Of a stretch of 32,930 nucleotides of DNA, positions 2,215 to 31,343 are shown piece after piece. The stretch is from IMG/VR virus record IMGVR_UViG_2690316161_000021, positions 1-32,930 of that record. The stretch is one strand, 5' to 3'. The notes below the pieces were generated by a model. It was not told the origin of the DNA, ran no database searches, and worked only from the letters and a program-made list of their open reading frames with translations. Position 1 is the first letter of the stretch, and each line of letters begins with the position of its first letter. The DNA comes from a virus. Taxonomy: Duplodnaviria; Heunggongvirae; Uroviricota; Caudoviricetes. The position numbers and the translations under genes are program-made.

Positions 2215-3192
2215 TTACATTCCTCCCAAGGGATTAAACCTCACCGCATCCTGCAAGTAATCCGGCGCAAGATGGGCATAAATCATCGTTGTCTGAATCT
2301 TTGCGTGCCCCAGAATTTTCTGGAGCGTCAGAATATTGCCGCCGTTCATCATGAAATGACTGGCGAAGGTGTGGCGCAGCGCATGAACAGCCTGGCCGTC
2401 GGGAACATCAGGTGCGACCGTTTTGATGACATCGCGAACCAATGGATAATCCAGCGTCGGAAACACCAGTTTCCCGCCCCGTTTTTTGATCTTTTCAAAC
2501 AGGCTTTCAGAAATAGGAACGGTACGGTTTTTGCTGTTCTTCGTTTTTGAAAAAGTGATTCGACAATGAAGAACACGGCGCTGCTCCAGTGCCGCTACCT
2601 CGCCCCATCGCGCCCCGGTCGACAGAAGGATTTCGACAGCCAGCCGTTCATCGGGATTTTCAGCCAGTGCATCCAGCAACTGAACACATTCAGACTTACT
2701 CAGATATCCCATTTCACGCTCGTTAACCTTCATTCCTTTAAGGCCTTGAACGGGGTTATCATTAAGAAAATGGCCGGATGAGATGAGTGCGGTAAACATC
2801 GCGCTTAACGCCCCAATCTCTCGATTTATGGTGCTGGGCTGTATCCCCTGCTCTATCCTGGACACACGTAGCTCGGTGAGCATTGTTGTATTAAGTTTAT
2901 GCACGCACGGGTCATCCATTGCCTCACTCAAGCGCAGCAATTTAAGGCGCGTGTTATGCCCTGACTTCATTAGCTGGCCGTGGTATTTCCACCACAAGTC
3001 AATAAGCACTGACAGAGGACGGCGATCAATAGAGTTTCCTTTCCACTCATTGTTATGCTGTTGCGCCAGCACCCACCGCTCATATAAAACTGCATCCGAT
3101 TTCGTTTTAAATTTTTTGCGAATGCGTTTGCCTTTACGCCCCTCAGGGCGCATGTCAAGAAGATACCCTCCCGGAATTGATTTTATGCTCAT
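2215..3192 (-). CDS. int: Tyrosine-type site-specific integrase (P2 Int-like)
   Basis: C-terminal catalytic region with HxLRHT-type motif (AVHALRHTFASHF) and the catalytic tyrosine region (IQTTMIYAHLAPDYL). The ORF extends to 3342, but the start is placed at the internal ATG at 3192 (MSIKSIPGGYLL) so it does not overlap the repressor gene. Confidence 0.9.
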   Translation of the reverse strand: MSIKSIPGGYLLDMRPEGRKGKRIRKKFKTKSDAVLYERWVLAQQHNNEWKGNSIDRRPLSVLIDLWWKYHGQLMKSGHNTRLKLLRLSEAMDDPCVHKLNTTMLTELRVSRIEQGIQPSTINREIGALSAMFTALISSGHFLNDNPVQGLKGMKVNEREMGYLSKSECVQLLDALAENPDERLAVEILLSTGARWGEVAALEQRRVLHCRITFSKTKNSKNRTVPISESLFEKIKKRGGKLVFPTLDYPLVRDVIKTVAPDVPDGQAVHALRHTFASHFMMNGGNILTLQKILGHAKIQTTMIYAHLAPDYLQDAVRFNPLGGM

Positions 3193-3241
3193 TCGTGAAA
3201 CCCCAGCGTTACAAGACCACCATGCCCCCAGCGCTCCATGA

Positions 3242-3550
3242 TTAGCCGGGCTGTGTGCCAGTCTTGCGGGGTTTTTGAGAAGGCGATGTGCTTTTTGGCC
3301 CATCAGGGGAGAGAGACGGACTGATCTGCCCAGCAGCCTCATTTGTTTTTCCCGTCATAAGCCAATTCATGTACTTAAAAAAGCGAGGGTGATTAACAAT
3401 CTTGATAAGCACTTCGCCCCCTATGTTTTCAATCCGCCCCGTTTCATAACGACGCAAAGTGCCGATAGGCACATCAATCAGGCCGCAAAATTCTTCGCGC
3501 GTTAAATCCTCTGATTCACGAATCACTCTAATTTTTTCACCGATAAGCAT
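3242..3550 (-). CDS. Immunity repressor, P2 C-type
   Basis: About 100-aa protein; the pattern EKI..R.SE.L.R...GTL..YE.GR....P.F.KY..W.MT...ESGQI.P...SP.SGQKTG matches P2 C as I recall it. Sits upstream of int and divergent from the early operon. The start is uncertain (the ORF extends to 3586). Confidence 0.75.
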   Translation of the reverse strand: MLIGEKIRVIRESEDLTREEFCGLIDVPIGTLRRYETGRIENIGGEVLIKIVNHPRFFKYMNWLMTGKTNEAAGQISPSLSPDGPKSTSPSQKPRKTGTQPG

Positions 3551-6235: not shown

Positions 6236-6358
6236 GAAACCAGAACATGCACACACAAAAAAACCGCTTGCCATGCCGCAATCAGTCAGGTTACATTTCC
6301 GCTGCACCTCATAAAACGGGTGCCGGGATTTCCACCCCGCTGACAACCAAAGCGCACA

Positions 6359-6378
6359 ACCGCGCCAGCGGTTTTTTT
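6359..6378 (+). terminator. Intrinsic terminator inside the early operon
   Basis: Stem ACCGC/GCGGT with GCCA loop followed by seven T residues (6372-6378). Confidence 0.5.
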
Positions 6379-6557
6379 GTGCGTACCGTATCGCCACGTC
6401 TTTTTCGCACACGAATTATGGTGGGGCGTACAGGGCCGACTTCGGTCGGGCCGGGTTCTTTGGTTGCCGGTTGTGGAAACCCTGTACGTCTCACCACCCC
6501 GAGTTTTCCACCTCTGGATGGTGAGTTTTCAAAACTTACAACCAAAGAGGCCACCCC

Positions 6558-6788
6558 ATGGCAAACCGCAAACAACAGCGCGCATACGCTGCGCGTCGTC
6601 ACATCCAGACTGAAATCAACCGCAGACTTTACCGCGCATCACGCGTCGCTCGTATCATGTTCATCAACATGTCACATGAGCACAGCCACGTGCTGTCAAA
6701 CGCCTACTCCGCCGCAGTATTTAGCTATCTGGCGGATGATCTGCGCGAGCTTCAGCAGCTCATCGAGCAGCAAAACAAACCCCATTAA
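6558..6788 (+). CDS. Hypothetical early protein
   Basis: 76-aa ORF with AAAGAGG RBS 7 nt upstream. Confidence 0.45.
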   Translation: MANRKQQRAYAARRHIQTEINRRLYRASRVARIMFINMSHEHSHVLSNAYSAAVFSYLADDLRELQQLIEQQNKPH

Positions 6789-6860
6789 TTCCTGTTCCGG
6801 GCCTTTCCTGCACCTTGCGGCGGGAGGCCTTCGCACATCTGTAGTAAAGAGAATTGCAGC

Positions 6861-7250
6861 ATGATTGACGCTCATGACTTCACAAGATGGGTGCGCACAC
6901 AGGACACCCGTCTGGCTCCCGTTCTTCAGGGATTATTTGATCTCTACATCCGTGGTCGTGACAACAGAGCACGCACCACAAAACCGGAGAATGCAGACAC
7001 CCTTTATTTCACAGTAGACGACTGCTACCGCGTGGACTTCACACCACACGGGCTGGCGTTGCACTGCCTGACACCACACGGAGAATCACTGCTGGCGTAT
7101 TACGACTCCCCGGCCTCCGTATTTGCGGCAATGCTGGCGCATCGCACTGCTGGCGGGTGTGCCTCGCTGAGTGAATACACCGCTGAATTTAACCGCCTTT
7201 CTGCCCTCTTCTCGCAGGAGTGGCAGCGCGTGACGGGATACCAGCCATGA
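6861..7250 (+). CDS. Hypothetical early protein
   Basis: 129-aa ORF immediately upstream of gene A; its stop overlaps the A start. Confidence 0.45.
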   Translation: MIDAHDFTRWVRTQDTRLAPVLQGLFDLYIRGRDNRARTTKPENADTLYFTVDDCYRVDFTPHGLALHCLTPHGESLLAYYDSPASVFAAMLAHRTAGGCASLSEYTAEFNRLSALFSQEWQRVTGYQP

Positions 7251-10093
7251 ATGAGTTTGCATGGAGCTGGAATGAACCACGGCCAGCCATTGATCCGGCC
7301 AGATTTACGGAGCACAGGCAGGAAACTGAAACCGACCTGCAACGCGCCATCCGTTACTACCTTGAGGCAGACAAAAAGGCTCTGGAAGAACAGGAAGCGA
7401 AGGAGGAAGCCTTTTTCGCACAATCCACCGTGGGTAAAAAACTCATGGCATCCCTTGAGGAAGCCGGACAGCGTGAAAAGCTGGCACAAAGCATCATCAG
7501 CAAGCGTCAGGCAACAGAACAAGACCCGGTGGCCCGTGCTTTTGCCACACTGAAGGTGCTTCCCGTTTATCTGCGTGAACCTCTGAGCCGCCACCTCTCT
7601 TTCCTGCGCAAAAAACAGGAAGCCGATCGCCAGAAAGGCAAAAAGAGCTGGCAGGCTGAACGCTACGCGCGCGGAACCCTGCGCAAAATATTCGAACGCC
7701 TGGACCGCACCGACCACCGCTGGCTGACACCGGGTTATCGCTCCCTTGCCGGACGCGAACGCCTGGATGATTTGCTTTACCTGCCGCAGCTCAACAAGCA
7801 CCAGATACAGACGCTGGCCACCATGACGGCGGCGATGTTCAGCAGCACCTTCGAAAAACTCTGCGATGGCTTTGGCGCGACCGATGGTGAGCTGACCATG
7901 GATGTAACGCTGAAGGCGTATCAGATGCTGGCCCGCATGGCGTTACACCTGCACGCCATGCCTCCACATTATGACGCACTGACAACAGACAAAGACCGGA
8001 GGAACGAACCGGACACGGAGCTGCTGCCGGGCGCAATCCTTCGCCTGACCTGTGCGGAATGGTGGAAACGCAAACTGTGGCTGTTACGTTGCGAGTGGCG
8101 GGAAGAACAACTCCGCGCCGCCTGTCTGGTTTCCAGAAAAACATCACCCTATCTGAGCCAGGACGCGTTAAGCGAGTTTCGCGCACAGCGCGAGAAAACA
8201 CGCGATTTCCTGAAAAGTTTCATGCTGGAAAATGAAGACGGGTTCACGATTGATCTCGAGACGGTGTATTACGCGGGAGTAAGTAACCCGGTTCACCGTA
8301 AGGCAGAAATGATGGCCACCATGAAGGGGCTGGAACTTCTGGCCGAAGCCCGTGGCGACAGAGCGGTGTTTCTGACTGTCACCTGCCCGTCAAAATACCA
8401 CGCAACAACGGAGAACGGTCATCCGAATCCCAAATGGAACGGGGCCACTATGCGCGACTCCAGCGATTACCTGGTTAACACGTTTTTTGCGGCGGTCCGC
8501 AAAAAACTGAACCGCGACGGCCTGCGCTGGTATGGCATCCGCACGGTGGAGCCTCACCATGACGGCACTGTGCACTGGCATATGATGGTCTTTGCACATC
8601 CGGACGAGATTGAAACCATCGTGTCCCACGTCTGCGATATTGCCATTCAGGAAGACCGCCACGAGCTGGGCGATGACATAACTCCGCGTTTTAAGGCGGA
8701 GTACGTCGACGGCTCAAAAGGCACGCCAACCAGCTACATCGCCACCTACATCGGAAAGAACCTGGACAGCCGCGCCGTGGATGGCATCGACCCGAAAACG
8801 GGCAAGCCACGCGTTGACCACGAAACAGGTAAATCAATGGCCGAGAGCGTGGAGCGCGCCATCGGCTGGGCGCGCCTTCACCGGGTCCGTCAGTTCCAGT
8901 TCTTTGGCATCCCCTCCCGTCAGGTGTGGCGTGAACTGCGCCGCCTTGCCAGCCAGATGGCACGCAATCCGGAAGGCCCGCAACGGCTGAAGGATGACGC
9001 AATGGACGCGGTACTCGCTGCCGCTGATGCCGGATGTTTTGCCACCTACATTGAGAAACAGGGTGGCGTACTTGTTCCACGCAAAGACTACCTGATTCGC
9101 ACCGCCTACGACCTCGCAGATGAGCTGAACGATTACGGTGAACAGAGCGTACAGATTTACGGGATCTGGTCGCCGCTCATTGGGGAGTCTTCCCGCGTAT
9201 GCACGCATCCGGATAACTGGAAGCTGGTAAGACGCAAACCGGAAGCGGAAGACAGCGCCCGCGAAAATGGTTTTGACCTTCAGGGCGGCCCTGCCGCCCC
9301 TTGGACTCGGACTCGTGGCAATAACTGTCCCCGTGTACAGGAAACAGGCAACAACGGGACAGAACAGCCGGAAGAACGGCCAGCACCGTGGCCGCAGCTT
9401 CCTGACGGCGTTGAAGTAAATGAATGGATGCGCTCACTGAAACGGCACGAACGCCGGGCGCTGATGCGTTCGCTTCGTGACAAACAGGCAAAAAACAGCA
9501 GCGATGAAATGCAGAACTGGACACAGAGCCGCAAACAGCAGCGGCCTTTGCCTGATAACCACGAGTTACTCGCTAAAGAATGGCGGGAGTCTGCTGAATC
9601 TCTCGGCCTGCATATCGGTGAACAACAGATGCAGCACCTGTTACGGGGCGGCAGTCTGTACGTTGACGGCAGCATCATTGCACCGCAGGGATTTGAAATT
9701 GTACGCAAACCGGATACCCGCCCGGACAGCCGAATCACGCAGCTCTGGCAGCGTCTGAGCCGTAATCATGGCGTAAGCAGCACGGAGATCCGCCATAACC
9801 CGGTCGCCAGCTATCTGGCACAGCTGGGGGCATCAGACCCTGAAGCCGCCGCACGCCTGGCATCCACACTTCAGCAGGACCAGAACACCATGAAAACACC
9901 CGTTACCGTGCTTTCTGACATGCTGCGCGCCATCCGCGACGCAGAGCACGCACAGAGAATCAGTGAAACCACTGAACGCGCCAGCCGCAAAGCAGACCTG
10001 CTGCGGGGTGGCCTGACCAGTGGAAACAAAAAACAGACAGAAACGGGACTCACGAATCCCGTAAATGAGCAAAAAACGCGCAGCGATATATGA
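7247..10093 (+). CDS. A: Replication initiation endonuclease, P2 gpA family (rolling circle)
   Basis: About 950 aa with an HUH-type motif (HHDGTVHWHMMVF) and a tyrosine-containing region (YIATYIGKN) typical of P2 A-type initiators. The start could be 7220 or 7247; the C-terminal roughly 250 aa looks like an extension. Confidence 0.85.
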   Translation: MNEFAWSWNEPRPAIDPARFTEHRQETETDLQRAIRYYLEADKKALEEQEAKEEAFFAQSTVGKKLMASLEEAGQREKLAQSIISKRQATEQDPVARAFATLKVLPVYLREPLSRHLSFLRKKQEADRQKGKKSWQAERYARGTLRKIFERLDRTDHRWLTPGYRSLAGRERLDDLLYLPQLNKHQIQTLATMTAAMFSSTFEKLCDGFGATDGELTMDVTLKAYQMLARMALHLHAMPPHYDALTTDKDRRNEPDTELLPGAILRLTCAEWWKRKLWLLRCEWREEQLRAACLVSRKTSPYLSQDALSEFRAQREKTRDFLKSFMLENEDGFTIDLETVYYAGVSNPVHRKAEMMATMKGLELLAEARGDRAVFLTVTCPSKYHATTENGHPNPKWNGATMRDSSDYLVNTFFAAVRKKLNRDGLRWYGIRTVEPHHDGTVHWHMMVFAHPDEIETIVSHVCDIAIQEDRHELGDDITPRFKAEYVDGSKGTPTSYIATYIGKNLDSRAVDGIDPKTGKPRVDHETGKSMAESVERAIGWARLHRVRQFQFFGIPSRQVWRELRRLASQMARNPEGPQRLKDDAMDAVLAAADAGCFATYIEKQGGVLVPRKDYLIRTAYDLADELNDYGEQSVQIYGIWSPLIGESSRVCTHPDNWKLVRRKPEAEDSARENGFDLQGGPAAPWTRTRGNNCPRVQETGNNGTEQPEERPAPWPQLPDGVEVNEWMRSLKRHERRALMRSLRDKQAKNSSDEMQNWTQSRKQQRPLPDNHELLAKEWRESAESLGLHIGEQQMQHLLRGGSLYVDGSIIAPQGFEIVRKPDTRPDSRITQLWQRLSRNHGVSSTEIRHNPVASYLAQLGASDPEAAARLASTLQQDQNTMKTPVTVLSDMLRAIRDAEHAQRISETTERASRKADLLRGGLTSGNKKQTETGLTNPVNEQKTRSDI

Positions 10094-10138
10094 GGCGCGC
10101 ACAAAACAGGCAAAAACGGGATTTCAGAATCCCGTAAA
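10030..10138. repeat. Two near-identical hairpin-containing repeats straddling the gene A stop
   Basis: AAACGGGACTCACGAATCCCGTAAA at 10041-10065 and AAACGGGATTTCAGAATCCCGTAAA at 10114-10138, each with a 6-bp inverted repeat ACGGGA/TCCCGT; both are preceded by AAAACAG-CA-AAA. Confidence 0.7.
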
Positions 10139-10169
10139 CGATTAATTAATCAACATAAGGAAAACCGAC

Positions 10170-11129
10170 ATGAAAATTTACATCGACGACGGCTCCACCA
10201 ACATCAAGCTGGCATGGACTGAGAACGGCGAACGCCGCAACGCCATCAGCCCGAACAGCTTCAAGTCGGAATGGTCTGCGCCGTTCGGTGGCTCGCAGCC
10301 TGCTAACTACATGCTTGATGGCGTGCGCTATGGTTTTGATCCGGTCAGCGATCGCTTTGTCCAGACGACCGACACGCAATACCAGTACAGCGATGTGAAT
10401 GTCATTGCCATTCATCACGCGCTGGTCAAATCAGACATCACGCCACAGGAAGTGGATGTGGTTGTTACCCTGCCACTGAGCGAATATTTCGACACAAACG
10501 CACAGCCGGACATGGCCAACATCAACCGCAAAAAAGCGAACGTCATGCGCCCGGTGGAGTACCAGAACGGCGAAGCATTCACTATCCGTAACGTACGGGT
10601 TATGCCTGAATCCATTCCGGCTGGCTTTAAAGCACTGGCTGACATGAGTCCGTTTGAATCCCTGCTGATTGTGGATTTGGGCGGAACCACGCTGGATGTG
10701 GCAAAGGTTCAGGGGCAACTGGCAGGTATCAGCCAGGTGTTTTGCGATCCACACGTAGGCGTTTCTCTTATGGCCGATGCCGTACTGTCGGTGATGGCCA
10801 CTAACGGTATGCGCACCAGTCACCACATCGCCAATACCATTATCGAACATCGCCATAATGAAGCCTGGCTGCGCCAGCACATCCACAATGACGCGCATTA
10901 CGCCAGCCTGATGGCGGTTATTCGTGAAAAGGAAGAAACACTGAAACAACGCGTGATCCGCGCGCTGGCGGTTTTTTCGGGTTACGGGCGGGTGATGGTT
11001 GTCGGTGGCGGGGCGGAGATTGTGGCACCCGCTATCCGCGAAGCCTGCGGAGTTAATGCGACTTTCATCGCGGACGGGGTGCCACAGTTTGCTCTGGTTA
11101 ATGGGCTGTACGCAATGGACAAGGAGTAA
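10170..11129 (+). CDS. parM: ParM/StbA-like actin-type segregation ATPase
   Basis: 319 aa with actin-fold motifs IDDGSTNIKL, DLGGTTLD and VVGGGAE. From memory it is collinear with plasmid R1 ParM (YSDVNV, ERKKAN, VMPESIPAG); not verified by search. Confidence 0.8.
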   Translation: MKIYIDDGSTNIKLAWTENGERRNAISPNSFKSEWSAPFGGSQPANYMLDGVRYGFDPVSDRFVQTTDTQYQYSDVNVIAIHHALVKSDITPQEVDVVVTLPLSEYFDTNAQPDMANINRKKANVMRPVEYQNGEAFTIRNVRVMPESIPAGFKALADMSPFESLLIVDLGGTTLDVAKVQGQLAGISQVFCDPHVGVSLMADAVLSVMATNGMRTSHHIANTIIEHRHNEAWLRQHIHNDAHYASLMAVIREKEETLKQRVIRALAVFSGYGRVMVVGGGAEIVAPAIREACGVNATFIADGVPQFALVNGLYAMDKE

Positions 11130-11133
11130 ACCA

Positions 11134-11445
11134 ATGACGACACCAACCAGACGGATAAGTTTCTATCTGAAGCCCGCCGCCGTCAAGAACGAAGGAGAAG
11201 CATGCGCCTGGCTGGACAGCCTTACACCAGAAGCCCGCAAAAGCGGCCAACGCGTGGCTTTTCTGGCCGGGCTGGCACTTCTGAAGACGAATCCGGCAGA
11301 GGCTTACCGACTGGCCGCATGGGCTGATGATGAGATGTTACCTGTGACACAAATCAGCTCAAAAAAGTTTGAAGCACAGTCTGCACCAGTGGCTAAGATA
11401 ACCAGCCAGATGGCTGGGAATATCCGGGCGTTATTTCCTGAGTAA
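11134..11445 (+). CDS. parR: ParR/StbB-like small DNA-binding partner
   Basis: 103 aa starting 4 nt after the parM stop with AAGGAG RBS; N-terminal RRISFYLKP and LAGLAL resemble R1 ParR as I recall it, and the C-terminus ends IRALFPE. Confidence 0.6.
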   Translation: MTTPTRRISFYLKPAAVKNEGEACAWLDSLTPEARKSGQRVAFLAGLALLKTNPAEAYRLAAWADDEMLPVTQISSKKFEAQSAPVAKITSQMAGNIRALFPE

Positions 11446-11573
11446 AAGCATCTGCGCGAAAAATGCTCACGTTTATAGAGACAGTATCATTCCATTTGGC
11501 ACACTTACTTCAATAATCGATCTGTTAAACAAATAGATTGTCTATTATCTATCGATTAAAACGATCAATTATC

Positions 11574-11601
11574 TTGACAGTAATGTGCCTTTTTGTAAGA
11601 T
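11574..11601 (+). promoter_or_regulatory. Candidate sigma70 promoter for the hotspot moron gene
   Basis: TTGACA (11574-11579), 16-bp spacer, TAAGAT (11596-11601) with TG one base upstream (extended -10). Confidence 0.45.
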
Positions 11602-11735
11602 CGTTCGCATTGTGAGCGACAAGATAATTGCGCGGCATTGTCCATGCAAAACGCCCCAATAGCAGCAACTATTGGGGCGTAAAACTCGGTCGGACTCACT
11701 TAACCTGATATGCGTGCCTTCCGAAGTAAATCAAA

Positions 11736-11804
11736 ATGTGCGTCGTATATTTTATTGCTTACACGCACCTCTGTAAAGGCACGCATATTTTTCCTATGAG
11801 GTAA
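11736..11804 (+). CDS. Possible 22-aa leader peptide (MCVVYFIAYTHLCKGTHIFPMR)
   Basis: Short ORF ending 5 nt before the GTG start of the 89-aa gene and covering its RBS; it sits inside an inverted repeat. Speculative. Confidence 0.2.
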   Translation: MCVVYFIAYTHLCKGTHIFPMR

Positions 11805-11809
11805 ATAAA

Positions 11810-12079
11810 GTGCGGGCTAAAACAGGTATTTGCAAGAACCCTCATCGTTATAATCCAACATTTCTGTCTCTCCCTGAATATCAAGGACAAGAAGGTCGGC
11901 ACAAATGCGCTGCCTGTGCTTTTGAGCTAGGCATAAAAGATGCGCTTGAAGGACGCGCTATGGCTCAGAATGATTTAGTTTTAGCTAACATTCCGTTTAG
12001 CCAGGCTGGAACTGTAAGGCACAGAGATGCCTATGAAGCATATGTTCGTGGTTGGCGATTAATAAACAGCAACAATTGA
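11810..12079 (+). CDS. Hypothetical 89-aa protein (single CxxC, basic) in the A-to-cos cargo hotspot
   Basis: GTG start with GAGG RBS 8 nt upstream; followed by an intrinsic terminator; embedded in AT-rich DNA. Confidence 0.5.
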   Translation: MRAKTGICKNPHRYNPTFLSLPEYQGQEGRHKCAACAFELGIKDALEGRAMAQNDLVLANIPFSQAGTVRHRDAYEAYVRGWRLINSNN

Positions 12080-12087
12080 TACTTTTG

Positions 12088-12112
12088 AAGCGCCGATAAG
12101 GCGCTTTTTTTG
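12088..12112 (+). terminator. Intrinsic terminator after the 89-aa moron gene
   Basis: Stem AGCGCC/GGCGCT with GATAA loop followed by an 8-T run. Confidence 0.7.
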
Positions 12113-12566
12113 TTTGCACGATAGTGCACAAGTTTGCACAATTTTTTTGAACGACTTTTTGTACTTCCGGCCCGCGTGGTGGCTGGATCCGTCAAGGATC
12201 CGTACGTGCACAAAAAAACGCGTTTTTTCTGCGCGCAGGTGACGGGGGAACAGCCCGCGTTTCAGGGGGGTAAATAGCGTTCCCTTAACGATGTCGCAGC
12301 GACACGACAGAATGGCCGTATTTCTCACGCTGAGCGTGAAAAATACGTGAGGGATTCTGGTTTGATGGGGTGAAAGGTAAGGCCGTCAAAATCGCACTGA
12401 GGCGGCGAGAACATGCAGTCAGCGCAGTGGGATTGCGTAAGAATCTGACCGTCGATGATGGCAATAAGCAGGAAAGCGTCGTGAAATTATCTGACTGATA
12501 CAGGAGCTGGAGAGTCGGGGCATAAATTTTTTATGCCCCGGCGAAGCAGCAGACAAGCGAAGCGCG
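12113..12566. other. Packaging region upstream of portal gene Q; probable cos site
   Basis: Noncoding interval between the hotspot and Q, where cos lies in P2-family genomes. Contains GTTTGCAC and GGATCCGT direct repeats, the palindrome AAAAAACGCGTTTTTT, and GACGGGGGAACAGC (around 12241-12254), which resembles the recalled P2/186 cohesive-end motif GGCG.GGCGGGGAAAGCA. Confidence 0.4.
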
Positions 12567-13613
12567 TCAGGATGTGGGCTGGGTATCTAACAGTGCGTAA
12601 GGGTTAAAGCGGATCACCTCTTCGCCAAGCCAGTCATTGATGTGCTTCATGGCCTCCATGACGGGCATCAGCTCGTTAATTGCGTAAACCCGCGCGGCCT
12701 TCTCCACATCACCAAACGCACTTTTTTCGCCCGGCATCGCCCCCATCAGTTGCGGTGGAACACGGTGCGCAGCCAGCACATCATCACGGGATGCCGCCTT
12801 AACATTCATGAACTCATCTTTTGCGGTGATCTGCTGGAACGGCAAAATTTGCACCCCCTCTTTGCCCCCGTTGGGCGCATGGATGAGCACGTTTTTAAAC
12901 GCACCACCACCACGCGCACCCTGTAACGTTTCTTTCAGGGAGTCCATGCTTTCGCGGTTTACCTGCGCTGCACCGATATAGATGATGCACCCGGCGTGGG
13001 ATCCATTGTCGTAATACAGTTTTCTGAACATGTCCGCCGAATGAGACAGGCTGGCCGAGAGTAATGCGCCAAGATATTCCGGCATGCCGTAAATTTCCTG
13101 GTTAATGTCCGGATTCATCAGGTGGCACACTTTGCCAGGGCGAAACTGAAACGCATCCTTGCCATCCTGAACATACCACCATGATTCAAGATCGCTTCCG
13201 CGTCGCATGTATTTCGCCAGGGCGTGCCGTAATTTAAGCGGTTCGCCGAGCATATTGCTTCGAAGCTCAAGAAATGCGTTACCGAACACAAACCAGTCCA
13301 GCGCCAGCGCCGAGAAATCCTGCCGGGAAAGCAGCGGGTGCGGAATATAGCAACCGAGCAATACATTGCGCTTAAAGTAAAGCGCAGACTGATGCCAGGA
13401 CGTTTGCCGGGCAGCTCTTGCCAGACCGTACCAGTCCACCGGGGTTTCATACCACCGCCCGTTATCAGCACAGTACATATTGTCCAGCAAATCATGCCCG
13501 GTCAGGCGATAAGGACCATCAAATGTGAATGCACTGAGCGACGATTCTTTCCTGAGCGCATCAGCGAGATCAATGCGTGAACTCATGCGCACTTTTTTAT
13601 TTTTTCTGCTCAT
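12567..13613 (-). CDS. Q: Portal protein (P2 gpQ-like)
   Basis: 348 aa, first gene left of cos on the minus strand and overlapping the P stop, as in P2. Confidence 0.8.
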   Translation of the reverse strand: MSRKNKKVRMSSRIDLADALRKESSLSAFTFDGPYRLTGHDLLDNMYCADNGRWYETPVDWYGLARAARQTSWHQSALYFKRNVLLGCYIPHPLLSRQDFSALALDWFVFGNAFLELRSNMLGEPLKLRHALAKYMRRGSDLESWWYVQDGKDAFQFRPGKVCHLMNPDINQEIYGMPEYLGALLSASLSHSADMFRKLYYDNGSHAGCIIYIGAAQVNRESMDSLKETLQGARGGGAFKNVLIHAPNGGKEGVQILPFQQITAKDEFMNVKAASRDDVLAAHRVPPQLMGAMPGEKSAFGDVEKAARVYAINELMPVMEAMKHINDWLGEEVIRFNPYALLDTQPTS

Positions 13614-23252: not shown

Positions 23253-23853
23253 TTCGTTGTTACCACCATCAGCCAGCAATTTCATGCGTTGTGCCGAAGC
23301 CGTCGGAACACGCATTACAGACATTCCGGTAGACCTCAACACGCTGTGGTCGCCGGACACCTGCCCGGTGCATCTGCTGCCTTATCTCGCCTGGGCGTTT
23401 TCCGTTGACCGCTGGGATCGCAACTGGCCGGAAGAGACAAAGCGACAGGTAATTCGTGATGCATGGCTGATACACCGACACAAAGGGACCATCAGCGCAC
23501 TGCGAAGAGCCGTGGAGCCTCTCGGCTACCTGATTGAAGTAAAGGAGTGGTGGCAACTCAACGAGGAGCCAGGAACATTTCGCATTGTTGTCGGAGTACT
23601 TGATCAGGGCATCACCGATGAAATGTATCAGGAACTTGAGCGCCTTATTGCGGATGCAAAACCAGTAAGTCGCCATCTGACGGGGCTGGCGATCAGCCTG
23701 AGTGTGAACGGAAAGATTTTCGTTGGTACGGGATGCTATCACGGCGATGCCCTGACGGTTTATCCCTACACCCCGGAGTCCATTATTGTCGAAGGGGATT
23801 ATTTCCCTGCCCCGGCCATTCATTTAATTGATAATCTGAGAGTAAACGCATGA
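23245..23853 (+). CDS. I: Baseplate/tail protein (P2 gpI-like)
   Basis: About 200 aa from the ATG at 23245, overlapping the J stop. Confidence 0.7.
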   Translation: MSNSLLPPSASNFMRCAEAVGTRITDIPVDLNTLWSPDTCPVHLLPYLAWAFSVDRWDRNWPEETKRQVIRDAWLIHRHKGTISALRRAVEPLGYLIEVKEWWQLNEEPGTFRIVVGVLDQGITDEMYQELERLIADAKPVSRHLTGLAISLSVNGKIFVGTGCYHGDALTVYPYTPESIIVEGDYFPAPAIHLIDNLRVNA

Positions 23854-25331
23854 CAGTGAAATACTACGCCATTCTGACTAATCAGGGCGCAGCACGACTG
23901 GCTAACGCGACGATGCTCGGCAGTAAGCTGAATCTGACGCAAATGGCCGTTGGTGATGCAAATGGTGTGTTACCAACACCAGACCCTGCACAAACAAAAC
24001 TGATTAACCAGAAACGCATTGCACCGCTGAATCTTCTGAGTGTTGACCCTAACAATCAGAGCCAGATTATTGCGGAGCAAATCATCCCTGAAAACGAGGG
24101 AGGATTCTGGATCCGTGAGATTGGTCTTTATGATGATGAAGGTGTACTCATTGCGGTGGCAAACTGCCCGGAAACGTACAAACCGCAGTTGCAGGAAGGC
24201 AGTGGACGCACCCAGACTATCCGCATGATTCTGGTTGTCACGAACACCGAAGCTATCACGCTGAAAATCGACCCGTCTGTGGTTCTGGCAACCCGCAAAT
24301 ATGTGGATGATAAAATCTCAGAGCACGAACAGTCACGACGTCACCCGGACGCCTCGCTGACCGCAAAAGGTTTTACTCAGTTAAGCAGTGCAATTAACAG
24401 TGAATCAGAAACACTGGCCGCAACACCGAAAGCGGTTAAGGCTGCATATGACCTGGCTAACGGGAAATATACCGCCCAGAACGCCACCACTATACAAAAA
24501 GGGATTGTTCAGCTCAGTAGCGCCACGAACAGCACGTCTGAAACGCTGGCAGCGACACCAAAAGCTGTTAAGGTGGTAATGGATGAAACGAACAAGAAAG
24601 CACCATTAAACAGCCCGGCACTGACCGGAACGCCAACAACACCAACAGCGCCACAGGGAACTAATAGTACCCAGATCGCAAGCACGGCTTTCGTTATGGC
24701 CGCGATTGCCGCACTTGTAGATTCGTCACCTGATGCACTGAACACGCTGAACGAACTGGCTGCGGCGCTGGGCAATGACCCGAATTTTGCGACCACCATG
24801 ACTAACGCGCTTGCGGGTAAGCAACCGAAGGATGCCACCCTGACGGCGCTGGCGGAGCTTGCTACATCAGCAGATAAACTCCCATATTTTACAGGGGCAG
24901 ATCGTGCCGCGTTAACCGCGTTGACAAGTGTTGGACGTGCCATTCTTGGTAAAACCAGCACTCAGGGAGTTCTTGATTACCTTGGTTTGGGAGAAGCGGC
25001 AAAACGGAATGTGGGAACAGGGGAAAATCAGATACCAGATATGTCTGCATTTCCATCTGGCAAAAACTGGTTTCAGTTACCAAGTGGTCATATTGTCCAA
25101 ATGTTTTCGATGAATGTTTATGGGGCGGACACTAACGGAACTACAGGTAATTTCCCTATTGCATTTCCTTCAGGCGCACTGGCTGTTAGTGCCTTATGGT
25201 CAGATGGCTCATTAACCGCTGCTCCGACCTTTAAACTTATGGGGTACACGACAACAAGGACATCAGTAACCTTAAAAGTATCAACCGGAAATGGTTTGTA
25301 TGGAACTATGATTATCGCAATAGGAAGATAA
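23850..25331 (+). CDS. H: Tail fibre protein (P2 gpH-like) with exchangeable C-terminal tip
   Basis: 493 aa; conserved N-terminus (MAVGDANG...GGFWIREIGLYDDEGVLIAVAN) and an internal duplicated QLSSA.NS.SETLAATPKAVK motif. A hix-like site lies inside the gene at 24970-24995. Confidence 0.85.
   Translation: MTVKYYAILTNQGAARLANATMLGSKLNLTQMAVGDANGVLPTPDPAQTKLINQKRIAPLNLLSVDPNNQSQIIAEQIIPENEGGFWIREIGLYDDEGVLIAVANCPETYKPQLQEGSGRTQTIRMILVVTNTEAITLKIDPSVVLATRKYVDDKISEHEQSRRHPDASLTAKGFTQLSSAINSESETLAATPKAVKAAYDLANGKYTAQNATTIQKGIVQLSSATNSTSETLAATPKAVKVVMDETNKKAPLNSPALTGTPTTPTAPQGTNSTQIASTAFVMAAIAALVDSSPDALNTLNELAAALGNDPNFATTMTNALAGKQPKDATLTALAELATSADKLPYFTGADRAALTALTSVGRAILGKTSTQGVLDYLGLGEAAKRNVGTGENQIPDMSAFPSGKNWFQLPSGHIVQMFSMNVYGADTNGTTGNFPIAFPSGALAVSALWSDGSLTAAPTFKLMGYTTTRTSVTLKVSTGNGLYGTMIIAIGR
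24970..24995 (+). other. Candidate Gin/Hin/Pin-type crossover site inside H (TTCTTGATTACC TT GGTTTGGGAGAA)
   Basis: 26-bp site with 12-bp half-sites flanking a 2-bp core, resembling the hix/gix pattern as recalled; its 3' 15 bp are identical to the site at 31411-31425. Confidence 0.55.
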
Positions 25332-25332
25332 T

Positions 25333-25437
25333 ATGAATCAATATATTTATTCCCCTTCGGAAAATGCTTTTTATGCTGTTAATTTAAAAAACACTTATGA
25401 AGTAAATGGAACATGGCCTGCTGATGCATTAGAGTAA
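25333..25437 (+). pseudogene. G: Tail fibre assembly gene (gpG/Tfa-like), 5' fragment interrupted by IS66
   Basis: AGGAAG RBS and ATG at 25333; 34 codons (MNQYIYSPSENAFYAVNLKNTYEVNGTWPADALE) ending in a stop created by the IS end; the remainder is on the minus strand at 32466-32816. Confidence 0.8.
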
Positions 25438-25486
25438 CCGGCTCATTTAAACCGTCTGGTCTGTTTCCTCCGGCTCTACAAAAATA

Positions 25487-26164
25487 ATGTCCATCATTTT
25501 TAATGGACACTATCGTATGAAACACCGGACCTGGATCACTGAAGCTTTACGTCTTCACTTTGAAGAACATTTACCCCGGGTTGTGGCCGGGCGTCGCCTG
25601 GGTGTACCAAAATCAACAGTTTGTAGTATGTTCGTGCGCTTTCGGAGAGCTGGCCTTTCGTGGCCTTTGCCCGCAGGCATGTCGGAGCAGGAACTTGATG
25701 CCTGCCTTTACGGACAATTTTCCACGGTACCAGTCGTACGTCCTGAAAGCACCGTTATATCCGAAGCCCCCGTGGTAAAAAAACGTCCCCGGCGGCCCAA
25801 CTTCCCTTATGAGTTTAAAATCGCCTTAGTGGAGCAGTCACTGCAGCCCGGAGCCTGTGTGGCGCAGATCGCCCGGGAAAACGGAATCAACGATAACCTG
25901 CTCTTCAACTGGCGCCATCAATACCGGAAAGGTGGCCTGCTGCCTTCCGGAAAAAATATGCCGGCACTGCTTCCCGTGACGTTAACGCCGGAGCCGGATA
26001 ATAAAATCCCGGCCCCCGCACAGGAACCAGAGCAGATAAATACACCGTCCGACAGTCTGTGTTGTGAGCTGGTTCTGCCGGCCGGAACTCTCAGGCTTAA
26101 AGGTAAACTGACGCCGGCGTTATTACAGACACTTATCCGCGAAATAAAAGGGAGCAGCCACTGA
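25487..26164 (+). CDS. tnpA: IS66-family accessory protein TnpA (orf1)
   Basis: First ORF of the element, ATGA-coupled to tnpB; start codon uncertain. Confidence 0.6.
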   Translation: MSIIFNGHYRMKHRTWITEALRLHFEEHLPRVVAGRRLGVPKSTVCSMFVRFRRAGLSWPLPAGMSEQELDACLYGQFSTVPVVRPESTVISEAPVVKKRPRRPNFPYEFKIALVEQSLQPGACVAQIARENGINDNLLFNWRHQYRKGGLLPSGKNMPALLPVTLTPEPDNKIPAPAQEPEQINTPSDSLCCELVLPAGTLRLKGKLTPALLQTLIREIKGSSH

Positions 26165-26511
26165 TGATATCTCTCCCTGCAGGTTCGCGTATCTGGCTGG
26201 TTGCAGGTATCACCGATATGCGAAATGGCTTTAACGGCCTGGCATCAAAAGTTCAGAACGTCCTGAAGGATGACCCGTTCTCCGGACACCTGTTCATCTT
26301 CCGCGGACGCCGGGGTGACCAGATAAAAGTGTTGTGGGCTGACAGTGACGGACTGTGCCTCTTCACCAAACGCCTGGAGCGGGGCCGCTTCGTCTGGCCA
26401 GTCACCCGTGACGGCAAGGTGCACCTTACTCCGGCTCAGTTATCCATGCTTCTTGAAGGTATCAACTGGAAGCACCCGAAACGAACGGAACGCGCTGGAA
26501 TCCGCATATAA
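26164..26511 (+). CDS. tnpB: IS66-family TnpB (orf2)
   Basis: 115 aa, typical size and position for IS66 orf2. Confidence 0.8.
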   Translation: MISLPAGSRIWLVAGITDMRNGFNGLASKVQNVLKDDPFSGHLFIFRGRRGDQIKVLWADSDGLCLFTKRLERGRFVWPVTRDGKVHLTPAQLSMLLEGINWKHPKRTERAGIRI

Positions 26512-26530
26512 CCCGTTGTAAAGTGAGGAT

Positions 26531-28102
26531 ATGGACACCTCACTTGCTCATGAGAACGCCCGCCTGCGGGCACTGTTGCAGACGCAACAGGACACCATCC
26601 GCCAGATGGCTGAATACAACCGCCTGCTCTCACAGCGGGTGGCGGCTTATGCTTCCGAAATCAACCGGCTGAAGGCGCTGGTTGCGAAACTGCAACGTAT
26701 GCAGTTCGGTAAAAGCTCAGAAAAACTTCGTGCAAAAACCGAACGGCAGATACAGGAAGCACAGGAGCGAATCAGCGCACTTCAGGAAGAAATGGCGGAA
26801 ACGCTGGGTGAGCAATATGACCCGGTACTGCCATCCGCCCTGCGCCAGTCTTCAGCCCGTAAACCGTTACCGGCCTCACTTCCCCGTGAAACCCGGGTTA
26901 TCCGGCCGGAAGAGGAATGCTGTCCTGCCTGTGGTGGTGAACTCAGTTCTCTGGGATGTGATGTGTCAGAGCAACTGGAGCTTATCAGCAGCGCCTTTAA
27001 GGTTATCGAAACACAACGTCCGAAACAGGCCTGTTGCCGGTGCGACCATATCGTGCAGGCACCAGTACCTTCAAAACCCATTGCACGCAGTTATGCCGGA
27101 GCGGGGCTTCTGGCCCATGTTGTCACCGGGAAATATGCAGACCATCTGCCGTTATACCGCCAGTCAGAAATATACCGTCGTCAGGGAGTGGAGCTGAGCC
27201 GTGCCACACTGGGGCGCTGGACAGGTGCTGTTGCTGAACTGCTGGAGCCGCTGTATGACGTCCTGCGCCAGTATGTGCTGATGCCCGGTAAAGTCCATGC
27301 TGATGATATCCCCGTCCCGGTCCAGGAGCCGGGCAGCGGTAAAACCCGGACAGCCCGGCTGTGGGTCTACGTCCGTGATGACCGTAACGCCGGTTCACAG
27401 ATGCCCCCGGCGGTCTGGTTCGCGTACAGTCCGGACCGGAAAGGTATCCATCCACAAAATCACCTGGCCGGTTACAGCGGTGTGCTTCAGGCCGATGCTT
27501 ACGGTGGTTACCGGGCGTTATACGAATCCGGCAGAATAACGGAAGTCGCGTGTATGGCTCATGCCCGGAGAAAAATCCACGATGTGCATGCAAGAGCGCC
27601 CACCTACATCACCACGGAAGCCCTGCAGCGTATCGGTGAACTGTATGCCATCGAGGCAGAGGTCCGGGGCTGTTCAGCAGAACAGCGTCTGGCGGCAAGA
27701 AAAGCCAGAGCCGCGCCACTGATGCAGTCACTGTATGACTGGATACAGCAACAGATGAAAACACTGTCGCGTCACTCAGATACGGCAAAAGCGTTCGCAT
27801 ACCTGCTGAAACAGTGGGATGCACTGAACGTGTACTGCAGTAATGGCTGGGTGGAAATCGACAACAACATCGCAGAGAACGCCTTACGGGGAGTGGCCGT
27901 AGGCCGGAAAAACTGGATGTTCGCGGGTTCCGACAGCGGTGGTGAACATGCGGCGGTGTTGTACTCGCTGATCGGCACATGCCGTCTGAACAATGTGGAG
28001 CCAGAAAAGTGGCTGCGTTACGTCATTGAACATATCCAGGACTGGCCGGCAAACCGGGTACGCGATCTGTTGCCCTGGAAAGTTGATCTGAGCTCTCAGT
28101 AA
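26531..28102 (+). CDS. tnpC: IS66-family transposase TnpC
   Basis: 523 aa with N-terminal leucine-zipper-like region, a CxxC...CxxC zinc motif and a DDE-type core; ends 30 bp before the right IR. Confidence 0.85.
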
Positions 28103-28132
28103 ATATCAATACGGTTCTGACGAGTCGCTTAC

Positions 28133-30216
28133 GGAGCGATGCCGCCAGTGGGCAGGCATTTCTTGCAATGGCTGGTTTTACTCCGCAGGCCATTCAGGCT
28201 GCGCTTCCCGGCGTGCTGAGCATGGCAACGGCTGGCGGTATGGATCTCGGCGAGACGGCGGATATTGGCTCAAATATCCTGACGCAGTTCGGCCTTTCTG
28301 CTGACCAGATGGACCGGGTCGGTGACACACTTACCGCAGCGTTTACCCGTACCAACACTGACCTTCGCGCACTGGGTGAAACCATGAAATATGCAGGTCC
28401 GGTGGCGGGCAAGCTGGGAATATCGCTGGAGCAGGCCGCAGCGATGGCGGGCGTACTGGCGAATATGGGTATCAGGGGAAGTGATGCCGGGACGGCAATG
28501 CGTGCCAGCCTGGCTCGTCTGGCATCACCGCCAAAGGCGGCGGCAGAAGCTCTGAAAGAGCTGGGCGTGTCCGTCTCTGATGCGAACGGCAAAATGCGCC
28601 CGATGGAGGATTTGCTGGCCGACCTTTATAAAGCCACCCGCAAATACGGGGAAGTTGACCGGGTATCGTTCTTTAAGGACATTGCCGGAGAAGAGGCTTT
28701 CACATCATTTATGGCCCTCGTTGATGCGGCAGGTGACGGCTCCTTACCTAAACTGAGAAAAGAACTTGAAGGCGCGCGCGGTGAGGCTGAGCGCACGGCA
28801 AAGGTTATGGCCAACAACCTTGACGGCGATCTGAAATCACTCGGCAGTGCATGGGAAGGGTTGCGCATCCGCATTGCAGATCTGATTGACGGTCCGCTGC
28901 GTTCTGTCACGCAGTGGCTAACGCGGGTGGTCTCAAAGGTGACGGCACTGGCGCAGGCCCATCCTGTACTGACGCGCCAGCTACTGATTGCAGGCGGTGC
29001 GCTGCTGGCAGTGACTGCAACCGTAGGCTCGTTGTCGCTTGCTCTTGGTGTGCTTGCTGGCCCACTGGCAAAACTGCGTCTTGGTTTTTCCCTCCTGACC
29101 GGATCAATGAATGCTGTCAGGCTCCTGCCAGCACTATGGGGAATGGTGACGGGTTCCGTTTCTTTGCTGGGGGGTGCTATCGGGGCGCTGTTCAGTCCGG
29201 TTGGTCTTATCGTGGCTGCGCTTGCCGGAGCTGCCGTTCTTATCTGGAAATACTGGGATCCCATCAGGGCATTTTTTGCCGGGGTGTTCAGCGGGATTAT
29301 GGAAAGGCTGGCCCCGTTGCGCGAAACCTTTGAACGGTTTGGTCCTGTTTTTGACGCAATCGGAAGCGGGATCAGCCAGGTGTTTAACTGGTTTAAATCG
29401 CTGCTGTCACCGATGGAGTCCAGCAAGGAAACGCTGGATAAATGTACCAGTGCTGGCGAGATATTCGGTAACGTTCTTGGCGGTGCGTTACAACTTGTTC
29501 TGACGCCTGCAAAAATGCTACTGGATACGCTGGCGTGGATACTTGAAAAACTTGGCGTCCTTCCGGATGAAGCGGAAAGGGCGCGCAAGAAAATCGAAGA
29601 CGCACAGCGTGCGGCCATTCTTCAGGACAAGGTTGCCTTGCTTCAGGGGGACCTGGCGAAAATCAATCCGCCGAAGCCTGTGGAAAATGGCAATGGCACC
29701 GGAGGTGATAAACCCAAAGACAACAAACCGCTCACAGACAGCAATACCGGTACGCTACGCAGACTCAGCAAAATTGCTGATAACACAGGTAAGCTGGTTG
29801 ATGAGACGAAAAAACGCATTGGCCCCGGCGATATTGTCTTTAAGAACCTGCCCCGCGCACTTGCTGTTCGTGGGGAGTGGCAGGAGCGGAAGATTGCGCA
29901 GGTCAGTAAGCCTGCTTCCGCAATCAACATCACACCCGTGGTCCCGACTCCTCTGCCTCCGGCGCTGGTCCCTGTTGTTGCGGCCAGCTCCCGCCCGGTG
30001 GCGGAGGCCATACGATCGCCAGTGGCATCAGTTCCTGCAACTTCCCGTAACCGGGAGCCTGTTGTCTCCGGATTTGGCGGTGAAATTCATGTTCATCTGC
30101 ATAACGTTGTTACGCAGAATCCCCGCGAACTGGCGAAACTGGTCGGTGAAATGGTCAGGGCAGAATTGGAACGACGCGACCGTGCCGGACGTGGCAGTTT
30201 TTACGATAAAGATTGA
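28133..30216 (+). pseudogene. T: Tail tape measure protein (P2 gpT-like), 5'-truncated at the IS66 boundary
   Basis: The reading frame is open from the first base after the IS; 682 codons from the first ATG at 28168; Ala/Gly-rich with hydrophobic central segments; followed by gpU. Confidence 0.75.
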
Positions 30217-30222
30217 GGAGTC

Positions 30223-30717
30223 ATGGCCATGATGATGATCTACGGCATGTTTGTTTTTGAGCTGCGCACATTGCCGCATCAGCAGTTACAGCAAAATAAA
30301 AGCTGGCGGCATGTGAAAAATGAACGCGTTAACCGTTCAGCAAGCTGGCAGTATATCGGGGCAGGCGATGATCGCATCGTGCTTTCTGGTGTGCTTTATC
30401 CTGAAATCACAGGTGGCGAAGTGTCGCTGTCGCTGCTGACCACGCAGGCGTATACAGGACGCCCCTGGCCTCTGATTGATGGCGTCGGACAGATTTACGG
30501 CATGTATGTACTGACTGAAACGAATACGACCCGCTCCGAGTTTGATCGCTACGGTAAGGCGAAAAAGATAGAATTTTCACTGACTCTTGAACGCTGTGAT
30601 GAGGATTTGCGGGAGCGCCTGCAATCCTCATCGTTCAGTGATATGCTGTCCGGCTTCAAAGATAAGGTCACATCATCCCTTAACAGCGCGGCCAGCTCCG
30701 TTAAAGGGCTGTTTTGA
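30223..30717 (+). CDS. U: Tail protein (P2 gpU-like)
   Basis: 164 aa; N-terminal MMMIYGMFVFELRT pattern and position after T. Confidence 0.75.
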   Translation: MAMMMIYGMFVFELRTLPHQQLQQNKSWRHVKNERVNRSASWQYIGAGDDRIVLSGVLYPEITGGEVSLSLLTTQAYTGRPWPLIDGVGQIYGMYVLTETNTTRSEFDRYGKAKKIEFSLTLERCDEDLRERLQSSSFSDMLSGFKDKVTSSLNSAASSVKGLF

Positions 30718-30724
30718 TTAACGC

Positions 30725-30758
30725 AAAACCGCTAATGGTCAGATTAGCGGTTTTCATT
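30725..30758. terminator. Bidirectional intrinsic terminator between convergent U and the invertase gene
   Basis: 8-bp stem CCGCTAAT/ATTAGCGG with 6-nt loop, flanked by an A-run upstream and a T-run downstream. Confidence 0.6.
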
Positions 30759-31343
30759 TTCCTGAATCTGCCTGATTGTTTCTTCAGCCTGTATATCGCC
30801 TACAGGGTGATAACGATAAATCGTCGATATGCCGATGTCGTAAATGATCGCCAGTTGTTTCCTGTCATGACCGTTTTTAATCAGCCTCGCTATTTGCTCG
30901 TGTTGTTCTTTTGTCAACTTCGGGCGACGTCCGCCAATGCGTCCTTGTGCGCGTGCTGCTGCCAGCCCGGCCAGTGTACGCTCTACAATTAATTCACGTT
31001 CCATTTCGGCTAAAGCTCCCATGACGTGAAAAAAGAAACGCCCCATGGGTGTTGATGTGTCAATGCTGTCCGTCAGACTACGGAAATTAACACCTTTTTC
31101 CCGCAATTCCTCAATAAGCGTGATCAGGTGTTTCATACTTCTGCCCAGTCTGTCCAGCTTCCAGACAACCAGCGTATCTCCTTCTGATAGCGTTCTGAGC
31201 AGTTTTTTCAATCCCGGTCTGGCTGATTTCGTTCCGCTGATTTTATCTTCAAAAATCAGTTCACATCCTGCGCACTCCAGCGCGTTACGCTGCAATTCTG
31301 TATTCTGGTCATTTGTTGATACGCGGACATAGCCAATAAGCAT
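30744..31343 (-). CDS. pin: Serine recombinase, DNA invertase of the Gin/Hin/Pin family
   Basis: 199 aa; N-terminal MLIGYVRVSTNDQNTELQ with catalytic serine and a C-terminal HTH; very similar to e14 Pin as recalled. Confidence 0.9.
   Translation of the reverse strand: MLIGYVRVSTNDQNTELQRNALECAGCELIFEDKISGTKSARPGLKKLLRTLSEGDTLVVWKLDRLGRSMKHLITLIEELREKGVNFRSLTDSIDTSTPMGRFFFHVMGALAEMERELIVERTLAGLAAARAQGRIGGRRPKLTKEQHEQIARLIKNGHDRKQLAIIYDIGISTIYRYHPVGDIQAEETIRQIQENENR

Follow-up and report, generated by a model that had tools for sequence, protein, structure and literature searches.

What does a phage that integrates into the chromosome of its host gain from a pair of genes of the kind with which plasmids segregate their copies? 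This question is raised by a locus in a P2-family prophage of Escherichia coli, where an actin-like ParM protein and a ParR adaptor are encoded directly behind the replication gene. The window (the whole stretch of DNA that was analyzed, 32,930 nt) is an integrated prophage of the P88-like type (Xuanwuvirus, Peduoviridae). Its integrated state is evident from the chromosomal FecCD gene alongside and from the presence of both an integrase and a repressor gene. From the left, the gene order is FecCD, integrase, an HTH repressor-like gene, early genes, gene A, parMR, Q, terminase gene P and late genes. E. coli O157:H7 FRIK944 has an identical (100%) parMR region in its chromosome, and in Escherichia phages 520873, P88 and other members of Xuanwuvirus (Peduoviridae) the identity is 96–98%. 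The landmarks that frame the locus are:

Left end of the window: chromosomal FecCD-family permease gene, adjoining the prophage.
2215–3342, minus strand: tyrosine integrase.
7220–10093, plus strand: replication gene A of the P88 type (957 aa; Pfam Phage_GPA, 1.5e-129), directly upstream of parM.
12567–13613, minus strand: portal gene Q, an ORF whose counterparts in P88 and 520873 carry the annotation portal protein; right boundary of the A–Q interval.

The remainder of the prophage has features of its own. Rfam models match an isrK Hfq-binding RNA (6304–6378) and a C4 antisense RNA (6414–6501), both on the plus strand and inside or beside an Ash-family ORF (6247–6864), the P88 homolog of which is annotated as ‘derepression protein’. 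This region (6304–6864) constitutes a P1/P7-type antisense immunity element within a P2-family prophage. The tail region (23850–31343) is disrupted: a tail-fiber gene (23850–25331) precedes a complete IS66-family element (three ORFs, 25487–28102), beyond which lie a tape-measure fragment that begins mid-domain (28168–30216) and a serine invertase (30744–31343, minus strand). Judged from this disrupted region, the prophage copy in the window is probably rearranged or defective. The N-terminus of gpA is mosaic as well: the initial ~350 nt of gene A (7220–7568) align in two related phages only, Chuche and PhiR44_2, and in the remaining relatives the alignment starts at nt 349 of the gene.

The pair itself begins 76 nt past gene A, with position 10094 as the first base behind the stop codon of A, and consists of the following elements:

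10170–11129, plus strand: parM, encoding the actin-fold ATPase (319 aa) of a type II partition system, assigned from Pfam, PDB and alignment.
11121–11126, plus strand: AAGGAG ribosome-binding site for parR, within the last parM codons, read from the sequence.
11134–11445, plus strand: parR, encoding an adaptor protein (103 aa; PF10784 Plasmid_stab_B, 9.8e-24), with its ATG 4 nt past the parM stop.

ParM matches the Pfam models StbA_N (9.7e-81) and ParM C-terminal domain (3e-68), and aligns end-to-end (residues 1–316) with the structure of R1 ParM (1mwk, E 7.7e-92). It is 45.9% identical to R100 ParM over the full length. The motifs IDDGSTNIKL, DLGGTTLD and VVGGGAE are present, and the stretches DDGSTNIKL, MPESIPAG, DLGGTTLD and GGGAE (covering the phosphate-1, phosphate-2 and adenosine motifs) are the same letter for letter in R100 ParM. 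Both ParM and ParR fall into ‘partition protein’ families of PHROGs. Among NCBIfam models, no specific one was found, with sub-threshold matches only. The match of ParM to ALP_N (24.9 bits) lies under the Pfam cut-off of 26.3. A first-pass annotation of this DNA, made from the letters alone, had described the two ORFs with their motifs, the 4-nt gap and the AAGGAG site, had named R1 ParM and ParR as homologs, and had placed the pair between A and cos. These descriptions are borne out by the coordinates above, by the profile searches and by the position of the pair between the end of A (10093) and the termini of a related linear phage record (~12160), with Q beyond.

ParR is the more variable partner. 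It is 29.8% identical to R100 ParR and matches phrog_2515 (‘partition protein’, 2e-59), and the protein consists of a conserved N-terminal PTRRISFYLKP, a variable linker (approximately residues 66–92) and a conserved C-terminal tail, NIRALFPE. Pairwise dN/dS follows these segments, with 0.13 for residues 1–65, 0.60 for the linker (66–92) and 0.06 for the last 11 residues. Across 25 homologs there is little or no change in PTRRISFYLKP or in the tail NI(R/Q)xxFPE, and residues N96, I97, F101 and P102 do not vary at all. Alignment matches this tail to the C-termini of R100 ParR (…KKNAMKLIN) and of the ParR of IncL/M plasmids (…RKNVQHLFPDDD). In R1 ParR, the C-terminal region is the ParM-binding peptide, and the alignment, the invariance and the dN/dS of 0.06 together identify the tail of the phage protein as the predicted ParM-binding tail. 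More broadly, the segmental dN/dS matches the known domain layout of ParR, as would be expected if ParR is a functional adaptor that binds DNA and has a flexible linker. A search of PDB sequences gave no match for ParR, and the AF2 model of the monomer is of low confidence (mean pLDDT 58), leaving the N-terminal 19 residues unmodelled and placing helices, as expected, at residues 20–29 and 32–52. An N-terminal ribbon-helix-helix fold, as is characteristic of ParR adaptors, is therefore putative in the phage protein.

Both genes appear to be kept in working order. Full-length ParM ORFs are found in 78 of 78 recognizable cases (among 80 IMG/VR loci), and pairwise dN/dS is 0.07 for parM versus 0.24 for the adjoining gpA C-terminus. 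Judged by homology and by these patterns of substitution, parMR is a true partition module of type II (ParMRC-like) that purifying selection maintains.

Allelic variation is spread unevenly over the pair. In 78 IMG/VR loci, ParR occurs as 37 distinct proteins in at least two classes that are ~58% identical, while ParM is at least 97% identical. The nucleotide similarity of parR to many relatives stops at residue 18, 48 or 65, which suggests intragenic recombination junctions. Avoidance of incompatibility between co-resident prophages was considered as a reason for this diversity of ParR alleles and rejected, as two prophages of one genome (loci L072 and L073) have identical ParR proteins. The finding of one variant of the second 42-nt repeat (see below) with both ParR classes speaks further against it.

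Comparison with known systems places the pair close to plasmid partition. The R1/R100 ParMRC system (parA/stbAB) has the same gene order, parM–parR, a ParM with identical nucleotide-binding motifs and a ParR of the same Pfam family with a similar tail. It differs in belonging to a plasmid replicon rather than to an integrating P2-family phage, and its ParR is longer (116 aa versus 103 aa). The closest plasmid ParM examined is that of IncL/M (pOXA-48-like) plasmids, at 53.3% identity, and the tail of the IncL/M ParR resembles NIRALFPE; this ParR, however, has 147 aa with a long linker, and the region upstream is unrelated. Among phages, phage-plasmid D6 encodes a StbA-type homolog, but D6 is a 91-kb P1-like prophage that is maintained extrachromosomally, whereas the element described here integrates. 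With the phage-plasmids as a class (P1, N15 and D6 type), the P88-like phages share a plasmid-type partition system, but not the extrachromosomal upkeep of the prophage. Another likeness is found in the Corynebacterium prophage CGP3 (AlpC/AlpA/alpS). According to two reports, this is an integrated prophage with an actin-like filament protein, AlpC, and a DNA-binding adaptor, AlpA, which serve the transport of phage DNA and its efficient replication (PMC4446434, PMC5539076). The sequence relation to this system is distant or absent, as reflected in the ALP_N match below the cut-off, and both the host and the type of phage are different.

The nearest relatives of the pair are found in phages of the same lineage. 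P88, 520873, PhiSM and P88_4B11 (Xuanwuvirus), as well as the partitioning system reported from the hotspot by Rousset et al. (2022), have the same genes at 94–98% nucleotide identity and in the same position. These pairs and that of the window do not differ in any essential way, the sole difference being the cargo that lies between parR and cos. Among 50,697 phage records, ParM homologs are confined to 14 records that carry this type of gpA and to phage-plasmid D6 (47% identity), and all 14 of the records with a P88-type gpA have the pair. Of 5426 complete E. coli genomes, 1303 (24%) carry parMR; at a coverage of at least 80% it is present in 1278 genomes, versus 1320 with a P88-type gpA. Almost every one of these copies is chromosomal (1449 of 1451). 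The synteny gpA–parM–parR–Q is kept even in divergent copies from Hafnia and from metagenome contigs.

Variation among relatives begins past parR, in the part of the interval that is described by two further features:

11446–12160, no strand: variable slot between parR and cos, with an 89-aa ORF, a promoter-like sequence (11574–11601, plus strand) and a terminator-like sequence (12087–12107, plus strand).
12160–12566, no strand: conserved region next to cos; the linear P88_4B11 record ends at positions that map to 12159 and 12164.

In the 42 related loci with Q in reach, the stop codons of parR and Q are separated by 480 to 2388 nt, and the cos-proximal 427 nt are present in 42 of 42. The location of cos (~12160) is deduced from the ends of P88_4B11, a linear record of the P88 type; GGCGAGGCGGGGAAAGCAC, which we take to be the cos sequence of P2, gave no match at three or fewer mismatches. 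The ORF in the slot (11810–12079, plus strand; 89 aa with a CAAC motif) belongs to phrog_3941 (unknown function) and occurs in 9 of the 42 loci; it received no assignment from Pfam, NCBIfam or PADLOC. On the minus strand of the slot (11645–11777), a promoter-like sequence (TTTACA-17-TAAAAT, 11777 to 11749) is followed ~70 nt on by a perfect 13-bp hairpin (11680–11651) and UUUUG. This arrangement (fold z-score −4.5) is a possible small RNA and lies opposite the plus-strand promoter-like sequence at 11574–11601, upstream of the 89-aa ORF.

Hotspot cargo varies in presence among similar phages, and parMR does not vary in this manner. The pair is a fixed module of the P88-like replication region, situated where the hotspot interval borders on gene A, and the variable slot is the stretch from parR to cos. 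The first-pass annotation had framed the pair as cargo of the hotspot, and the survey of relatives instead gives routine core occurrence in the lineage, an outcome that the annotation itself had listed as counting against its reading. Two loci outside the typical context were also seen. E. coli O157:H7 strain 7409 has in its chromosome a P2-like remnant (typical of O157:H7) that keeps gpA and an intact parMR; an IS3-family fragment takes the place of the slot and of all that follows up to and including the head genes, and is joined straight to the tail genes. The other is a gpA–parMR–Q segment (NZ_MK439959.1, 41975–49210) in pC-Ec2-KPC, a 228-kb conjugative IncC plasmid with KPC, and appears to be a P88-like prophage integrated in a resistance plasmid.

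The pair and its position have been recorded before. Rousset et al. (2022) analyzed 18,150 gpA–gpQ loci of E. coli P2-like phages, an interval that houses old, tin and many defense systems, and reported a putative plasmid partitioning system in about one-quarter of these phages; their supplementary tables list arrangements of StbA with Plasmid_stab_B (PMC9122126). Pfeifer et al. (2021) flagged P88 as possibly episomal, with its partition genes as the reason (PMC7969092), and a paper on Citrobacter rodentium prophages gives the gene of PhiSM as a ‘fitness’ factor (PMC6456863). GenBank and RefSeq records of P88, 520873 and other Xuanwuvirus members already label the two genes ‘plasmid segregation protein ParM’ and ‘partition protein’; the paper describing P88 does not discuss partition. 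The pair, the slot and the episome hypothesis are thus already known, and the first-pass remark of knowing no ParMR pair from this slot is disproved by two papers together with the database records. A functional test of the pair was not found in the literature.

A partition module of this type also needs a site to which ParR can bind. The only notable repeats near parMR are two direct repeats of 42 nt:

10027–10068, plus strand: copy 1, in the 3′ end of gene A, with the inverted repeat ACGGGACTCACGAATCCCGT at 10043–10062.
10100–10141, plus strand: copy 2, in the spacer between A and parM, with the inverted repeat ACGGGATTTCAGAATCCCGT at 10116–10135.

The copies are 73 nt apart, and no further match is present in the window, where 0.07 would be expected by chance. 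Each unit contains a 20-nt inverted repeat, ACGGGAyTnnnnGAATCCCGT, and both copies are found in 70 of 76 related IMG/VR loci. In a Hafnia phage, the core GGGAyT-N4-rAATCCC and an A-rich flank are kept in both copies, despite diverged flanks and diverged encoded amino acids. Within E. coli, where divergence is shallow, the inverted repeats are not less variable than their flanks, and we therefore treat the assignment as parC as provisional. With modest confidence, the two units are the most likely ParR site and a parC-like candidate. The arrangement differs from parC of R1, where ten 11-bp iterons surround the promoter, in that the P88-like phages have two units of 42 nt, each with an inverted repeat, and copy 1 lies within gene A. 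Alternatively, the repeats could act as an RNA hairpin (z = −4.0 on the plus strand) or as a minus-strand terminator, as they are terminator-like in that orientation.

In the gap between A and parM, a scan based on a crude consensus predicted neither a sigma-70-like promoter nor a plus-strand terminator, and repeat 2 could harbor a weak promoter that ParR regulates. The simplest reading is therefore that parMR is co-transcribed with A in the early operon. In P2-type phages, gene A belongs to a repressor-controlled early operon that is shut off in lysogens, and replication in lysogeny would need derepression.

We lean towards a role in which parMR segregates or positions extrachromosomal phage circles during gpA-driven replication, with no permanent upkeep of a plasmid prophage. 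parM and parR would be transcribed with gene A from the early operon, after which the N-terminal segment of ParR would bind near the 3′ end of A, with the two 42-nt repeats as the candidate site. Filaments of ATP-bound ParM would be captured by the C-terminal tail of ParR, and as they grow, they would push sister phage circles apart. This would take place after infection, before integration, and again after induction. The likely benefit would be that both daughter cells inherit the phage, or that the substrates for replication and packaging are better spaced. The chromosomal location of 1449 of 1451 copies, the retained integrase and the reading of the pair as part of the early operon argue against a permanent plasmid prophage and likewise against a role in lysogenic conversion or defense.

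Stable maintenance as a low-copy episome, with ParMR providing an alternative to integration, has been proposed twice (PMC9122126, PMC7969092). It would agree with the finding that the closest phage ParM outside the lineage is that of a phage-plasmid, D6 (47% identity), and with one circular record in PLSDB (NZ_CP148288.1), a complete P88-like genome of 34,461 bp. This ‘plasmid’ comes from a cat E. coli isolate and carries an integrase and parMR; its portal gene, however, is split into ORFs of 217 aa and 154 aa, and the record may represent an excised or induced form or hold an assembly error. Against a facultative plasmid prophage stand the near-complete chromosomal location of the pair, the retained integrase and the repressor control of gene A, which in established P2 biology makes replication in lysogeny dependent on derepression. 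We consider such a plasmid alternative unlikely, and stable plasmid lysogeny is disfavored. The first-pass annotation had offered persistence as an episome as one of its options, and this part survives as a possibility through the one circular record, but not as the usual state of an element that is integrated in the window and chromosomal nearly everywhere else.

A different role would be that of an aid to replication or positioning, in which the filament moves phage DNA and boosts lytic replication or packaging without partition to daughter cells, as described for AlpA and AlpC in work on the integrated prophage CGP3 (PMC4446434). The tight linkage of the pair to gpA and its probable co-transcription with that gene are in line with such a role. 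The packaging substrate of P2, monomeric circles, would suit it as well. ParM is nevertheless close, full-length kin of plasmid-segregating ParM proteins (46–53% identity) and not of AlpC, and we regard positioning without partition as quite unlikely. The first-pass annotation had also suggested recruitment for exclusion or defense against other phages or plasmids. Such a role has in its favor that the pair sits in the interval that houses old, tin and many defense systems (PMC9122126), yet it is very improbable: PADLOC matches none of its families to ParM, ParR or the 89-aa ORF, the pair is fixed in the lineage rather than shuffled, no promoter of its own is predicted, and co-resident prophages can have identical ParR. 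Least probable of all, to the point of being hardly credible, is a decaying relic of past recombination with a plasmid that has no present function. Plasmid ancestry is the one point in its favor, and it is contradicted by the selection data, namely the dN/dS of 0.07 for parM, the intact ORFs in 78 of 78 cases and the domain-specific conservation of ParR.

Returning to the segregation or positioning of phage circles during replication, the locus can be set in the wider context of the P2 family. It is plausible, if short of probable, that in an integrating, rolling-circle P2-family phage present in a quarter of E. coli strains, an actin-like spindle segregates or positions monomeric circles during establishment and lytic growth, or else supports a facultative episomal carrier state, using a minimal two-unit centromere in the 3′ end of the replication gene; this would be a ParMRC system outside plasmid biology. 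The pair is very common (24% of complete E. coli genomes) and subject to strong purifying selection, yet resides in a phage that integrates, which makes its benefit a testable question on which two papers have so far only speculated. If the pair acts in establishment or lytic growth, it would extend ParMRC from the inheritance of plasmids to the handling of virus genomes, in a coliphage that is tractable.
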